Assembly (NCBI GenBank): GCA_037380845.1
Contig: JARRRI010000022.1
Location: forward strand, 73,289-137,288
Length of the DNA stretch: 64,000 bases
Direction of reading: 5' to 3'
Source of the DNA: Candidatus Sulfobium sp.
GTDB lineage: Bacteria > Nitrospirota > Thermodesulfovibrionia > Thermodesulfovibrionales > UBA6898
Position 1 is the stretch's first letter, and every line of letters starts with the position of its first letter. A program made the position numbers. Below, one piece after another: positions 30,001-33,000 of the stretch.

Positions 30001-33000
30001 ATAACGGAGGTGGACCATGAGAAAAGTCTTGTCGGGAGTTTTGATGCTCGGATTTATTCTGGCGTTGGGCGTGTACGGTGCGGATGCGCAGTCGCAGCCG
30101 CCGGGCGGAACGGGCGGAGGTGTTTCGGCCAGGTGCGCGGATATAATGGGCCCCGGAATGATGGGAGGTCCCATGAGGGGTGGCTACGGAATGAGGGGCA
30201 AGGGCATGATGGCACCGGGTATGGCGAGCGGTAACATGGGAGGCCGTTGCGGCTGCGGTATGGCGAGCGGTAACATGGAAGGCCGTTGCGGCTGCGGTAT
30301 GGTGCGGTATGATGGGCCGTCATTTTGGAATGATGGGCGGGAAGGGTAGTATGGGCGGTGTGCATCACCGCCTCTGGCACTATATCATGAGACTCGATCT
30401 TGACCAGAACCAGCGGGCCGAGATCTGGAAAACAAAGACCGACCTGATGAAGAACATGATCCGGAAGAAGGCCGACCTGCGCATCGCCATGCTGGAACTG
30501 GGTAATCTGGTCCATGCCGACAAAACCGACATGAAGAAGGTCGAGGCTAAGGTAAAACAGATAGAGAATCTGAGATCGTCCATGCTCATTTCCGGCATAG
30601 AAGCAATGGAGGCCGTTAAGTCGAAGCTGACCGCCGACCAGAGGAAGAAACTGGGCAACATGATGGAGAGCCCTGGGCGATGCATGATGATGGGTGATGA
30701 CATGATGAGCGGCGGCATGACCGGCGGAGACATGATGGGAGACGGTATGATGGAAGAAGCTCCGGCTGAAGATTAACTGACACGCGACCGGCGGGAGGGG
30801 CAAAGCGTGACCCGCTTTCCCCTCCTGCCGGCAGGCTCCGGGGCAAACTGAGAAGTTAGAGTTACTTGCCCGGTTCCTGAGCAATTCCTTAAAGAAGGAG
30901 GCTTATCATGAAAAAGAACGTCGGAGGCATCGACAAAGCGATAAGGTTCATTATCGGGATCGTCCTGGGTCTTATCGGCTTTTTCGTGCAGATGAGCACC
31001 GGCCTTAGAATAGCTTTCTTCGCTGTCGGGGCCATAGCCCTCATCACCGCCTTTACCGGTTTTTGACCGCTCTGGGCGGTGCTCGGGATCAGCACCCACA
31101 AGGAACATTCAGGCTGAGAATACATATCAAAGGGAGAGCCCGAATCTCGATAGCGCCCTGGCTGTCGAGGCGTGGTCAACATGGTGAATGCCGTTTATGC
31201 CCAAAGTGCGGGCGACTTCGACATAGAGTCCCCTGTCATCGATGTACACAACGTTTTCAGGCGGAACCTGGGCCGCATCGAGGGCGATGCGGTAGATATC
31301 TTCATCGGGCTTCCGGAAGTGGACAAAGCAGGACACTATGAAGAAGTCAATGAATTCTGCCAACCCGTGGTCCCTGACTCGCCGGTCTGTCAGCTCCCGC
31401 CCTTCATTGCTGACCGCGGCCACCTTCAATCCGTATTTCTTTTTCAGTTCCCGGAACAGACCGATCGTCTCAGGGTAAGGCGTTGTCCGGAACATGAACT
31501 CCTTTAGATCTTCCCGCGGGAAAGACCTTTCCTCATAAAAGATAACGCGGTCGAGGTAAGTATCGAGAGTAAGCTTGCCTTCCTCGTACGTATCGAAGGT
31601 CAGATGGTGCCTCTCGTTCAACTCGTCGATGTCAAAGCCGAAATGGTCGGCGGCTCTCTTTCGTTTCTCATGGCCCCAGCCGTTTTCGAGCATGACTCCG
31701 CCGATATCCAGAAACAGTGCCCTGACAGGTGGCATGGGAATCAGTCCTCCATTGCATGCAGACTCTGGTTAAAGTCTATCCGGTTTCCGGACAAAGTCAA
31801 GAAAGCCGTCCCCCAGATGAGTTCAGTCTGAAGCGTACCTGTAATCCTTCTTTACTTCCAGAAAGCCTACGACGCACAGCGTCACCAGGGCTACCGTCAG
31901 AAGCCTGACCGGCCCGATGGGGGCAAGATGGAACCGTTCCCTGAGGAAGGGGACGTAAATCCCCAGGAGGAGAAAACCGGTTGCCGAAACCGCCCACACA
32001 TTCATAATGCCGTTTTTGAAAAGGCCTATCGAAAAAACGGGTTCCGTGTCGGAGCGGGCGATAAAGGCGAGGATGATATGTCCGAAGATCCACGCGGAAA
32101 AAGCGAGAGTCTGGGTCTGCCCGAAACTGAAATCCATGTATCGCGCATAAAAATATGCGAACATGACGGAGCAAAAGAGAACAAAGCCGTTAAGGAGGAC
32201 CTTCTTCACCAGCCTGCCGCTGAAGACGTCCTCGCGGGGATTGCGAGGCGGCCGGCGGTAAATGCCGGACTCCTTCGGTTCTGCAACGAAACCGGCCGAT
32301 GCGGCAAGGTCCATGAATAACTCCAGTACGATGATCTGGATCGGGCTGAACGGCATGGGGACCCCCACTATGACCGGCAGCAGAAAGATCAGCACAAGTG
32401 CGGTCTTTACCGAAAGATAATACGTAATCCCTTTCCGGAGGTTGTCAAAGAATTTTCTTCCCTCGAATATGCCCTGGGTAATGGTAATGTAATTGTCGTC
32501 CGCCAGGACTACGTCGGCCGCGTCCTTGGCCACGTCCGTTCCCCTGACACCCATGGCTATGCCTATGTCGGCCCCCTTGAGGGCCAGAACATCATTGACA
32601 CCATCGCCCGTTACGGCCACCACTTCTCCGTTTTTCTGCAACGCCTCGACTATGCGGTGTTTGTGCAACGGAGTGGCCCTGGAAAAAACGGAGACGGCCT
32701 TCACCAGTTCCCGCAGCTCATCGTCGGTCGCCTCGTCGACCTCTTTTCCCGTTGCTATCCTGTCCGTCTTTATGCCGACCTCGCCGGCTATAAAACCGGC
32801 CGTTCCCGAATGGTCTCCCGTGACCATAATAGTCCTGATCCCGGCCGCCGATGCTGTCCCTATCGTCTCTTCCACCCCTTTGCGCGGAGAATCCTCGAAG
32901 CCTATGAGGCCTATGAAAGTCATGCCTTTCTCCAGTTCCGTGAAGTCCAGGTCTTCCTCCCCGGAGTGGAGCTGCCGGAAGGCGACTGCTATCACCCGCC

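Follow-up and report, generated by a model that had tools for sequence, protein, structure and literature searches.

An in-frame UGA at the conserved cysteine position of a YgaP-like membrane protein (DUF2892): a candidate selenoprotein family

Introduction

The locus considered here raises the question of whether the TGA at which gene callers end a short gene of the DUF2892 family (YgaP-like_TM, PF11127) is a stop at all or, instead, a codon for selenocysteine (Sec). The gene lies in a window of 64,000 nucleotides, by which we mean the whole stretch of Candidatus Sulfobium sp. DNA that was analysed (contig JARRRI010000022.1; positions are counted from its first letter), and its surroundings include genes of the Sec machinery (Table 1). 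To our knowledge DUF2892, which comprises thousands of clusters, has no known function. A genome-wide survey's note had put the gene forward as a candidate selenoprotein; re-examination confirms the observation and supports the interpretation, in that an in-frame UGA opposite a conserved Cys and a SECIS-type hairpin are both found, together with selA, tRNA-Sec and selD and with a selB that lacks its P-loop. Judged on this sequence-level evidence, the gene very probably encodes a selenoprotein (we would put the probability at roughly 87%), the UGA at codon 53 being decoded as Sec in a 69-residue member of the family.

Table 1. Features of the locus and of the Sec machinery encoded in the same window
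Feature	Positions	Strand	Remarks
Metal_resist/LTXXQ ORF, Met-rich tail	30309-30776	+	neighbour
Shine-Dalgarno-like GAAGGAGG	30894-30901	+	6 nt 5' of the ATG; from sequence
DUF2892/YgaP-like_TM gene	30908-31117	+	69 codons including putative Sec53, plus terminating TGA; translation
In-frame TGA, codon 53, probably read as Sec	31064-31066	+	alignment with Cys of homologues
SECIS-type hairpin GGUGCU-CGGGAUC-AGCACC	31078-31096	+	5' arm 31078-31083, loop 31084-31090, 3' arm 31091-31096
Terminating TGA	31115-31117	+	16 codons 3' of the Sec codon; next stop in frame
HAD hydrolase	31127-31735	-	between the Metal_resist ORF and the ATPase
P-type ATPase with Cation_ATPase_N and Cation_ATPase_C	31823-34249	-	neighbour
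selA (selenocysteine synthase)	54737-56140	+	TIGR00474, 620.3 bits against a cut-off of 267.9
selB (Sec-specific elongation factor), open frame	56570-58360	+	TIGR00475, 331.6 bits, model positions 29-578

Reading frame and read-through product

The gene opens with an ATG at 30908, preceded by a strong ribosome-binding site. Without read-through the called product of 52 amino acids matches PF11127 over model positions 1-51 (E 2.5e-12, 47.2 bits), whereas the read-through protein of 69 amino acids matches positions 1-65 of 66 with E 4.5e-21 and 75.2 bits (gathering cut-off 25.3 bits), the codons 3' of the UGA completing the model (positions 52-65). The TGA, in the sequence ..AFTGF-U-PLWAVLGISTHK, aligns with the conserved Cys of the family, which is Cys159 of E. 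coli YgaP, in a column that is invariant C/U in 65 aligned sequences. Both the extent of these matches and the placing of the TGA at the conserved-Cys position had been given in the survey's note, and the repeated search, the re-read sequence and the alignment all agree with it.

A contig assembled from a run of another study spans 30917-31203 with zero differences, and 13 DNA runs from marsh and salt-marsh metagenomes were matched; among the sequencing runs listed with a match to the gene there was no RNA run. TGA is the commonest stop of the long ORFs in the window and ends 16 of 33 of them, which rules out a genome-wide reassignment of this codon. Scans of positions 30700-31250 returned no promoter-like site and a single terminator-like site, on the minus strand within the gene and at chance level.

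Relatives of the gene and the Sec/Cys pair

A family-level search (54 genomes, 42 places listed) finds a TGA at this codon in 19 places in 18 genomes or, when a fragment of 21 residues lying at the start of a G021 contig is left out, in 18 places in 17 genomes, with identity down to 51%. The latter count is that reported by the survey, but its figure of eight more distant places without TGA gives way to 23 among the 42 listed. Rows of this search with one TGA and one TAA include, within the aligned tail, the stop of the gene itself, and six rows of a phylum-wide sample with TAA or TAG within the match most likely do so too.

The pattern scan behind the earlier note had been described as noisy, with about 17 of 80 loci genuine. 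In a new scan of metagenome contigs with the wobble positions left free, 68 of 70 loci encode a DUF2892 protein, which is beyond chance. Since the pattern for these 68 genes requires U-P-L-W-x-V-L-G-[IF]-x-T, the search itself imposes their amino-acid conservation, and it is the wobble positions that carry the information. Among the matches listed in a scan of genome contigs, the TGA occurs in Nitrospirota-type MAGs and in one Desulfopila MAG. The string TGA-CCN-YTN-TGG recurs in 75 distinct related genes, some in Nitrospirota or Desulfobacterota genomes and others in metagenomes, and in these genes P54 is encoded by CCG (31), CCC (18), CCT (15) and CCA (11) and L55 by six different Leu codons, within a pattern that permitted only YTN, that is Leu or Phe, at codon 55; protein-based searches independent of the pattern agree on synonymous change after the UGA. 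The peptide 3' of the UGA aligns residue for residue with the Cys forms and, to judge from its codons, is conserved in a coding manner (PLW-x-VLGIST).

In the phylogenetic tree a branch with support 97/87 separates off 47 Sec forms together with two Cys forms, and the TGA forms constitute one subfamily in which Cys forms are nested. Cys orthologues include P0003, with 66% identity (GLCPLWTVLGISTRKEK), and P0024, while P0105 and P0106 are Cys forms of 96 residues whose C-terminal tail pattern is, by eye, the same as that of the long-tail Sec forms; 12 family paralogues carry G[WF]CPPY..LLGI[SK]TCK. As many as 43 of the 47 Sec forms have no other Cys, and residue 64 is Cys in only one of them as against 9 of 18 Cys forms.

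The SECIS-type hairpin

The hairpin begins 11 nt after the A of the UGA, which equals the 14 nt of the survey's note when counted from the U. The bSECIS model calls for a loop of 3-9 nt, an upper stem of 4-16 bp and 16-37 nt from UGA to loop (PMC13188914, Fig. 2 legend), as well as a G in the first two loop positions followed by G and an energy of at most -7.5 kcal/mol (PMC13188914). With these the element shares a loop of 7 nt, a stem of 6 bp, a loop that starts C-G-G (G at positions 2-3), a UGA-to-loop distance of 17 nt and, over the 45 nt that follow the UGA, an energy of -10.3 kcal/mol. It differs in that the 19-nt core alone, at -7.3 kcal/mol, falls just short of the threshold, and in that it lies wholly in conserved codons, which it appears to dictate (GUG CUC GGG AUH AGC ACC). 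The threshold of -7.5 kcal/mol is reached by 67 of 72 sequences. As such, the stability of the hairpin is ordinary (z = +0.29 over 71 nt, with 113 of 200 shuffles folding equally well or better). When 30800-31250 was scanned against Rfam at E <= 10, nothing matched the hairpin or the plus strand, the only matches being four weak minus-strand ones to snoRNAs.

Across the 72 sequences 98.8% of 432 cells are paired, a pairing score matched by none of 500 shuffles. The outermost pair is GC in 64 sequences, UA in two, AU in one, GU in one and other in four, and the fourth pair is GC in 69, AU in two and GU in one. Compensating changes are found at two of the six pairs, with two-sided change in only 5 of the 432 cells, while three pairs are invariant and the Val and Thr codons largely determine the middle ones; moreover, one of the two GUA..AGU cases (L142) may represent decay instead of compensation, because the N-terminal half of that copy is out of frame. 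The covariation is thin, and the survey's warning to this effect, together with its remark that the hairpin overlaps conserved codons, was well founded.

Codon usage can be read from the 75 genes, which were gathered with a pattern leaving the wobble positions free. Within the hairpin Val is encoded by GTG in 73 and GTA in two, Leu by CTC in 74 and CTA in one, Gly by GGG in all 75, Ser by AGC in 72, AGT in three and TCN in none, and Thr by ACC in 68, ACA in five and ACT in two. Outside it the wobble position is free, both at T47 (ACC 24, ACG 22, ACT 19, ACA 4) and at G17 (GGG 19, GGT 7, GGA 28, GGC 9). In 56 Cys forms the equivalent codons vary (Gly GGC 24, GGA 7, GGG 10, GGT 8; Ser TCN 10, AGY 14), and Val at position C+5 occurs in none of the 56. 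On these counts the hairpin is held fixed at the RNA level.

The Sec machinery and a truncated selB

In this genome (G000) selA and tRNA-Sec are intact, the latter scoring 73 bits with the ARAGORN anticodon tca, and both here and in G018, the genome of a sister species, a Sec-type selD and two FdhA-like genes keep an in-frame TGA. The selB match, though its score is above the cut-off, is without model positions 1-28, the P-loop; a TGA stands before AKEEKERGITID at its 5' end, and in G000 and G018 alike there is no ordinary start before a GTG, which in the window lies at 56648. No P-loop motif was found near selB in any frame, nor a separate N-terminal piece of selB in either genome. Candidates for the missing N-termini were rejected, EF-Tu on its translation and other long ORFs, taken as translation GTPases, by length only. 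Such a P-loop-less selB occurs in 2 of 50 family genomes, namely these two, between which dN is 0.083 and dS 1.048 over 596 codons; with dN/dS at 0.079 the truncated gene is under strong purifying selection. The want of a P-loop makes Sec insertion less certain in this organism than in its relatives with the TGA form, where selB is full-length.

Among the TGA-form genomes of the family selB is present in 17 of 18, the exception (G017) being 78% complete. In a phylum sample of 401 genomes selA accompanies the TGA form in 12 of 12 cases as against 194 of 401 overall, and one family of that sample has selA in 0 of 75 genomes and DUF2892 in 59 of 75, the listed matches showing no TGA. The Desulfopila genome with the TGA form likewise has selA; among the genomes examined, TGA forms were found solely in those bearing selA.

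Predicted structure and genomic neighbourhood

An AlphaFold2 model built on a 65-row alignment (mean pLDDT 76.7) has helices at residues 7-26, 31-50 and 54-59, of which two are predicted to be membrane helices, and places Sec53 in the break between helix 2 and the short C-terminal helix, at the position of Cys159 in YgaP. The product would cross the inner membrane as a helical hairpin whose two ends face the cytoplasm. This topology is favoured by the positive-inside rule, with MKKNVGGIDKAIR N-terminal and STHKEHSG C-terminal, and by YgaP, where a rhodanese domain located in the cytoplasm stands ahead of the corresponding helices. Because a profile search of solved structures with the alignment gave no match at E <= 10, the comparison with YgaP relied on the E. 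coli K-12 record. In Foldseek the model likewise found nothing in the PDB at E <= 0.001, probably because a two-helix hairpin is too generic. A complex prediction with two copies of the Cys orthologue P0003 yielded a score of 0.01 and a mark of 0.32, values that speak neither for nor against pairing.

With the Cys-containing members of PF11127, including the membrane domain of E. coli YgaP, the protein has in common the full Pfam model, the two predicted helices and the G-x-C-P position. It differs from them in the putative Sec in place of Cys, in the Val of VLGIST and in that a second Cys 11 residues further on is almost always missing from the Sec forms, and it differs from YgaP in being a stand-alone protein of 69 residues without a rhodanese domain.

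As to the neighbourhood, the Metal_resist ORF and the P-type ATPase named by the survey are present, but a HAD hydrolase lying in between had been left out (Table 1). Among 25 scanned Sec-form loci a P-type ATPase is a neighbour in four (including L047, L051 and L052), a DsrC-like gene in four, SOD, DJ-1 and cytochrome P460 in three each and a rhodanese fusion in one; rubrerythrin or HSP20 stands beside DUF2892 at other Sec-form loci. No conserved operon around the Sec-form genes was found in the 25 loci, the neighbours varying from one to the next, and the neighbourhood points to no firm function.

Decoding, function and alternative readings

In the mechanism that we propose, with the UGA in the ribosome, SelB carrying Sec-tRNA(Sec) would bind the hairpin and insert Sec, whereupon translation would continue for 16 codons and stop at the next UGA. 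The conserved hairpin lies 5' of this second UGA and not 3' of it, so that the terminating codon comes after a hairpin and not before one. Were the UGA at codon 53 an ordinary stop, the product would have 52 residues and the hairpin would be an RNA element for stability or attenuation instead of a SECIS. Gene callers do end the gene there, 34 of 97 homologues in a protein collection are exactly 52 residues long (six longer ones that were inspected also end in ...TGF), and the hairpin folds no better than expected; yet the 16 codons past the UGA finish the Pfam model and align with the Cys forms, P54 and L55 show synonymous changes, the Cys orthologues that nest within the Sec clade continue through the same peptide, and TGA forms go with selA in the genomes examined, all of which leaves this reading only a very slim chance. 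Somewhat less improbable, but still quite unlikely, is that the selenoprotein family is genuine while the present gene is an undecoded relic in which UGA53 terminates translation to give a 52-residue fragment. The selB match starting at model position 29 behind a TGA, with neither a P-loop motif nearby nor a separate N-terminal piece, would fit a relic, as would the fact that G018 shares the truncation and has a DUF2892 copy without helix 1. Against this stand the low dN/dS of the truncated selB, the in-frame TGA kept in selD and the two FdhA-like genes of both genomes, the intact selA and tRNA-Sec, and the undamaged state of the gene itself, whose hairpin is perfect and whose ribosome-binding site is strong.

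Sec is normally found at catalytic redox sites, and its presence at the conserved Cys position suggests that the one conserved Cys of DUF2892 likely does chemistry and is not merely structural. Sec53 may then act as a nucleophile anchored in the membrane, accepting sulfane sulfur or another chalcogen and handing it on, or else as a redox site, possibly as part of a response to sulfide or oxidative stress; we offer this role tentatively, at a little short of even odds. Most Sec forms lack any further Cys, so that a resolving thiol would need to be supplied by a partner or by another copy of the protein. According to PMC4730233, Cys159 of YgaP lies at the C end of transmembrane helix 2 near an SCN- site, and the two Cys159 of the YgaP dimer come closer on SCN- binding; two other papers describe the ygaVP operon as derepressed by sulfide (PMC9774250) and a DUF2892 gene of Azospira as up about 10-fold under H2S oxidation conditions (PMC5358917). 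A different role for Sec53, in the handling of soft metals (Cu, Hg, Cd, Ag) together with a Spy/Metal_resist-like protein and a P-type ATPase and not in sulfur or redox chemistry, could be argued from the two genes of these kinds near it in the window, from the ATPase neighbours at L047, L051 and L052 and from the several listed selenoprotein families that are metal transporters or binders (PMC13188914). However, this context recurs at only 4 of 25 loci and so lends no support to a metal role, other loci having SOD, DsrC-like, DJ-1, cytochrome P460, rubrerythrin or HSP20 genes instead. The ATPase, moreover, has Cation_ATPase_N and Cation_ATPase_C domains, which we associate with the P2 type (Ca/Mg/Na/K) rather than with heavy-metal pumps of the P1B type, and a single Sec without a second thiol would make a poor chelate unless in a dimer; we regard soft-metal handling as unlikely.

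Relation to known selenoproteins and wider meaning

PF11127, DUF2892 and YgaP are absent from the 2026 table of 119 prokaryotic selenoprotein families (PMC13188914, Table 1), NCBIfam gave 0 families at E <= 0.1, the BSepDB supplement text (4.0 million characters) contains none of the three names, and a literature search returned no paper with both DUF2892 and selenoprotein; the first two results agree with what had been stated before. DUF2892 is, as far as its sequences tell, very probably a selenoprotein family absent from the list of 119, and the catalogue of prokaryotic selenoproteins would gain one family. The membrane selenoproteins already listed, the YeeE/YedE thiosulfate transporters (GUxSG), a putative mercuric transport protein (PF02411) and the Cu/Zn efflux transporter of the SO_0444 family (PMC13188914, Table 1), resemble it as integral membrane proteins with one Sec, Cys homologues and a connection to sulfur or soft-metal traffic, but they are of unrelated folds and families without PF11127, and they are multi-pass transporters whereas a two-helix hairpin is predicted here. 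The rhodanese-like selenoproteins, of which forms 1-5 with the motifs UxxS, UxxG, CxU and UxxxxU are listed (PMC13188914, Table 1), differ in domain and motif; yet rhodanese is the very domain fused to DUF2892 in YgaP, so that each half of the YgaP architecture would have its Sec variants.

PF11127 is a large family, with 9,579 cluster representatives at E <= 0.001, and Cys159 of E. coli YgaP offers itself as a direct target for experiment. A broader proposal, doubtful as a whole and less probable than the role suggested above for Sec53, is that the conserved Cys/Sec, at the cytoplasmic end of helix 2, would be the active site of a very large family of membrane persulfide or chalcogen relays with rhodanese or DsrC-type partners, fused in YgaP and separate in the stand-alone forms. 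The unpublished Sec subfamily, which extends over at least two phyla, would be the high-reactivity version, the SECIS having dictated VLGIST. The hairpin would also illustrate clearly how a SECIS can constrain the protein sequence with which it overlaps. For annotation, the practical consequence is that gene callers cut Sec-form genes at 52 amino acids, as the 34 homologues of that length illustrate. The remedy is simple, because TGA-CCN-YTN-TGG combined with the near-invariant hairpin gives few false matches (68 of 70 genuine).

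A YgaP-like gene with an in-frame TGA

When the TGA at codon 53 of the DUF2892 gene is read as selenocysteine (Sec, U), the translation becomes MKKNVGGIDKAIRFIIGIVLGLIGFFVQMSTGLRIAFFAVGAIALITAFTGF-U-PLWAVLGISTHKEHSG, a protein of 69 residues that matches PF11127 (YgaP-like_TM, formerly DUF2892) over model positions 1-65 of 66 (E 4.5e-21); the 52-aa product of the gene caller covers only positions 1-51. The genome-wide survey's note had described precisely this, a gene cut at a TGA with a full family match on read-through, and both the frame and the Pfam comparison confirm it as written. 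The further interpretation as a selenoprotein is likewise supported by the alignment with cysteine-containing homologues, the constraint on a hairpin and the distribution of the Sec machinery, and we put the probability that this is a selenoprotein gene at roughly 0.87. TGA has not been reassigned in this genome; among the window's 33 non-overlapping ORFs of at least 250 aa, 16 end in TGA, as does the DUF2892 gene itself. Nor is the codon a slip of the window's assembly, since a contig from a run of a different study (X9) spans 30917-31203 with zero differences from the window.

Positions (window numbering) of the DUF2892 gene, its hairpin and the Sec machinery genes
Feature	Position	Strand	Remark
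Shine-Dalgarno-like GAAGGAGG	30894-30901	+	read from sequence
Start codon ATG of DUF2892 gene	30908	+	read from sequence
In-frame TGA of DUF2892 gene	31064-31066	+	read from sequence
SECIS-type hairpin, 5' arm GGUGCU	31078-31083	+	11 nt after UGA
Hairpin loop CGGGAUC	31084-31090	+	sequence
Hairpin 3' arm AGCACC	31091-31096	+	sequence
Second TGA, terminates DUF2892 gene	31115-31117	+	read from sequence
selA	54737-56140	+	620 bits
Cys-rich 106-aa ORF (..CWEFKKCGREKGG..CETCEFY..), between selA and shortened selB	56141-56461	-	
selB	56570-58360	+	332 bits; model start only from position 29

Sec and Cys at the conserved site

Among 54 genomes of the same GTDB family, 32 gave matches, with 42 places listed, and a TGA stands in the codon 53 column at 19 of these places in 18 genomes, one of them a contig-start fragment of 21 residues and another, in a species of the same genus (G018), comprising residues 24-69 only. 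The 23 more distant family places listed have no TGA in this column, which is occupied by Cys in the 12 distant copies read (G[WF]-C-PPY..LLGI[SK]TCK). Cys159 of E. coli K-12 YgaP falls in the same column when its last 64 residues are aligned, and close full-length Cys forms were found in the homologues P0003 (66% identical, ..TAFTGL-C-PLWTVLGISTRKEK) and P0024 (56% identical). Two 96-aa Cys forms from the cluster-representative search (P0105 and P0106) have C-terminal tails of the same pattern, by eye, as those of the long-tail Sec forms L102, L138, L141 and L162. The protein collection holds 97 homologues at E <= 0.001, of which 34 are exactly 52 aa long, and the six N-terminally longer ones that were read end at ...TGF as well; the truncated products are named 'DUF2892 domain-containing protein' or 'hypothetical protein' at source. 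Multiple copies of the domain also occur among the cluster representatives P0103, P0108 and P0104, as tandem duplications (two copies each, 155-156 aa) and, in a 944-aa protein, as four matched DUF2892 stretches.

A hairpin constrained at the RNA level

The hairpin that the survey's note placed after the UGA is present; the spacing of 14 nt given there was counted from the U of UGA, and the interval after the UGA is 11 nt. The bSECIS model set out in the Fig. 2 legend of the 2026 review (PMC13188914) has a 4-16 bp stem, a loop of 3-9 nt with G in its first two positions, 16-37 nt between UGA and loop and an energy of at most -7.5 kcal/mol. The window's hairpin lies within all of these limits, with a loop of 7 nt that opens C-G-G, a stem of 6 bp, 17 nt from UGA to loop and -10.3 kcal/mol over the 45 nt after the UGA.

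So as not to presuppose the hairpin that was being tested, metagenome contigs were scanned with a pattern that specified the peptide U-P-L-W-x-V-L-G-[I/F]-x-T and nothing else, the wobble positions and the Ser codon family being left free. This yielded 70 loci, 68 of them (all but L123 and L127) with an in-frame DUF2892 N-terminal half, and pooling with the loci from protein searches gave 75 distinct genuine genes; among their products are 62 different full-length proteins in which U is preceded by exactly 52 residues. Across the 75 genes the hairpin codons are GTG 73 and GTA 2 for Val, CTC 74 and CTA 1 for Leu, GGG 75 for Gly, AGC 72, AGT 3 and TCN 0 for Ser, and ACC 68, ACA 5 and ACT 2 for Thr. 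Outside the hairpin the wobble base is free, at the conserved T47 (ACC 24, ACG 22, ACT 19, ACA 4) and G17 (GGG 19, GGT 7, GGA 28, GGC 9) as well as at P54 (CCG 31, CCC 18, CCT 15, CCA 11). The equivalent Gly codons of 56 Cys forms are also free (GGC 24, GGA 7, GGG 10, GGT 8), their Ser codons are TCN 10 and AGY 14, and none of the 56 has Val at C+5. Since the hairpin codons are frozen in the TGA forms but codons are free elsewhere and in the Cys forms, what is constrained is the RNA, and that in the TGA forms only.

Pairing is kept in 98.8% of 432 cells of a 72-sequence, 54-column alignment, and the observed pairing score was reached by none of 500 shuffles. The outermost pair is GC in 64 sequences, UA in 2, AU in 1, GU in 1 and unpaired in 4; the pair formed by the third bases of the Val and Ser codons, both wobble positions, is GC in 69, AU in 2 and GU in 1. 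The combination GUA..AGU occurs twice, in different clades, in the intact gene L158 and in L142, where, judging from an N-terminal half that is out of frame, it may reflect decay and not compensation. The stem is extended by CUA..UAG in L030 and shifted in L031 (UGCUUA-GGA-UAAGCA), and the loop reads CGGUGUG in genome G219. The energy is at or below -7.5 kcal/mol in 67 of the 72 sequences. Against the hairpin count the energy of its 19-nt core by itself (-7.3 kcal/mol), the stability of the 71-nt stretch, which does not exceed that of shuffles (z = +0.29), the invariance of three of its six pairs and the absence of a match among the Rfam families.

In two close Cys forms the stem is gone (G225 copy, CPIWFALGINT) or partly kept as GUUGUU..AGCACC (L173, G241:C1:491197-491403, CPLFMLFGISTC); the partial stem could be left over from an earlier TGA form, and the host of L173 belongs to a family with selA found in 0 of 75 genomes. 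Either chance or the breakage of a copy accounts for the locus L127, on a metagenome contig of 163,773 bases, where TGA-PLWSVLGFST is combined with a hairpin-like GGUGCU-UGGAUUC-AGUACC behind an upstream frame that is not DUF2892. Contigs of run X1 break at window 31056-31103, where their summed depth over the hairpin is 69-84 versus 16.5 beside it, and one loose end runs on into the tail of another organism's DUF2892 copy; the near-invariant hairpin, common to several co-occurring genomes, fragments their assemblies.

Distribution and the Sec machinery

A scan of genome contigs gave at least 48 loci; among those listed, the TGA is found at 8, seven of them in MAGs titled Thermodesulfovibrionales, Nitrospirae or Nitrospira and one in an uncultured Desulfopila, and the other 40 have Cys (39) or Phe (L070) instead. 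DUF2892 is matched in 204 of 401 sampled genomes from the window's phylum (250 matches in total), and the TGA occurs at 13 or more places in at least 12 genomes among the 150 matches listed. selA is present in 12 of 12 TGA-form genomes among these matches versus 194 of 401 in the whole sample; in one family DUF2892 is matched in 59 of 75 genomes and selA in none of the 75, and the DUF2892 matches listed for it include no TGA. The Desulfopila TGA-form genome also has selA, and three genomes in a 401-genome sample of its phylum carry the TGA form. A maximum-likelihood tree of 67 rows, whose inner forks are poorly resolved on 72 columns, has a branch (support 97/87) that sets 47 of 47 Sec forms, together with P0003 and the G225 copy (both Cys forms), apart from the rest, and requires three changes of the Sec/Cys label.

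The window's genome (G000) encodes tRNA-Sec (73 bits; anticodon tca by ARAGORN), and its selD and two FdhA-like genes have in-frame TGA codons. selB is matched in 17 of the 18 TGA-form genomes of the GTDB family, the exception (G017) being 78% complete. Of the 50 family genomes with a selB, 48 have a gene that begins at model position 1; in G000 and G018 model positions 1-28, the P-loop region, are missing. The G000 frame, which reads AKEEKERGITID, opens immediately downstream of a TGA and has its first ordinary start at GTG 56648, the P-loop motif is absent from every frame of 54001-59000, and a separate N-terminal piece was found in neither genome. G018 has no 106-aa ORF inserted between selA and selB. 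The shortened gene is nevertheless under purifying selection (dN 0.083, dS 1.048, ratio 0.079 over 596 codons between G000 and G018), the stretch before the GTG shows, by eye, 11 synonymous and 2 replacement differences, and both genomes retain the TGA in selD and the FdhA-like genes. A selB without its P-loop reduces confidence in Sec insertion in the window's organism, but not in the DUF2892 selenoprotein family. The TGA form of G018 (L032, G018:C8:15834-15971) keeps residues 24-69 only, with helix 1 gone and other sequence in the upstream frame, and may be a decayed copy in a host that also has the shortened selB.

Relation to known selenoprotein families

None of the 119 families and subfamilies in Table 1 of the 2026 review is PF11127, DUF2892 or YgaP, and the 'hypothetical' families of that table carry NCBIfam identifiers, of whose models none matches our protein at E <= 0.1. 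The three names are likewise absent from the BSepDB paper and one supplement file, and DUF2892 is not among the nine new families named in the deep-Sep paper. Full-text literature, within a scope that stops short of subscription journals and bioRxiv supplements, held no paper joining DUF2892 with a selenoprotein; judged by titles and abstract openings, papers with YgaP and selenocysteine do not concern Sec in DUF2892, and, by title, those mentioning DUF2892 do not concern selenium. The protein is a new family within the well-known class of bacterial selenoproteins.

Structure, neighbours and possible function

In an AlphaFold2 model (65-row alignment, mean pLDDT 76.7) residues 7-26 and 31-50 form helices, and a break at residues 51-53 (G-F-U) separates the second of these from a short helix at 54-59. 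Both ends are probably cytoplasmic, given the charged MKKNVGGIDKAIR and STHKEHSG and the cytoplasmic location of the rhodanese domain ahead of these helices in YgaP, and Sec would accordingly lie at the membrane-cytoplasm boundary. EPR puts Cys159 of YgaP close to the SCN- site, at the C-terminal end of helix 2 (L142-G160), and SCN- binding draws the two Cys159 of the dimer closer (PMC4730233). Of 47 Sec forms, 43 lack Cys anywhere outside the Sec position; a Cys 11 residues after the conserved site occurs in 9 of 18 aligned Cys forms, 12 of 12 family paralogues and 1 of 47 Sec forms.

The neighbourhood of the Sec forms is not conserved among 25 loci scanned. The window and L047 share the order MFS transporter, response regulator, Metal_resist/LTXXQ protein, DUF2892 gene, HAD hydrolase and P-type ATPase (Cation_ATPase_N and Cation_ATPase_C domains), with a ferritin before the ATPase in L047 only, and a P-type ATPase also adjoins in L051 and L052. 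Fe/Mn SOD and a DsrC-like protein lie upstream in L054, L026 and L031, a DsrC-like protein neighbours L033, and DJ-1/PfpI follows in L026, L031 and L033, a recurring arrangement to which L031 adds a nearby rhodanese-rubrerythrin fusion. Cytochrome P460 adjoins in L025, L177 and L182, and rubrerythrin (L183), HSP20 (L178, L182) and Usp (L051) are further neighbours. The shared theme is oxidative and sulfide stress and sulfur-carrier proteins, not metals, and a soft-metal role for the Sec residue appears unlikely. Sulfide derepresses the E. coli ygaVP operon via the SqrR/BigR-type repressor YgaV (PMC9774250), and a DUF2892 gene of Azospira suillum is up about 10-fold in perchlorate-dependent H2S oxidation (PMC5358917). 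Because of these neighbours and the sulfide evidence we tentatively favour a membrane-anchored nucleophile that could take and pass on sulfane sulfur, or serve as a redox site.

Upstream in the window, two + strand ORFs in different frames overlap by 41 nt: 30017-30349, with an apparent signal peptide and Gly/Met-rich repeats, and 30309-30776, a Metal_resist/LTXXQ (Spy-like) protein whose tail is Met-rich and which lacks a signal peptide. A single gene broken by a frameshift, or else misassembly of a repeat, may account for the pair.
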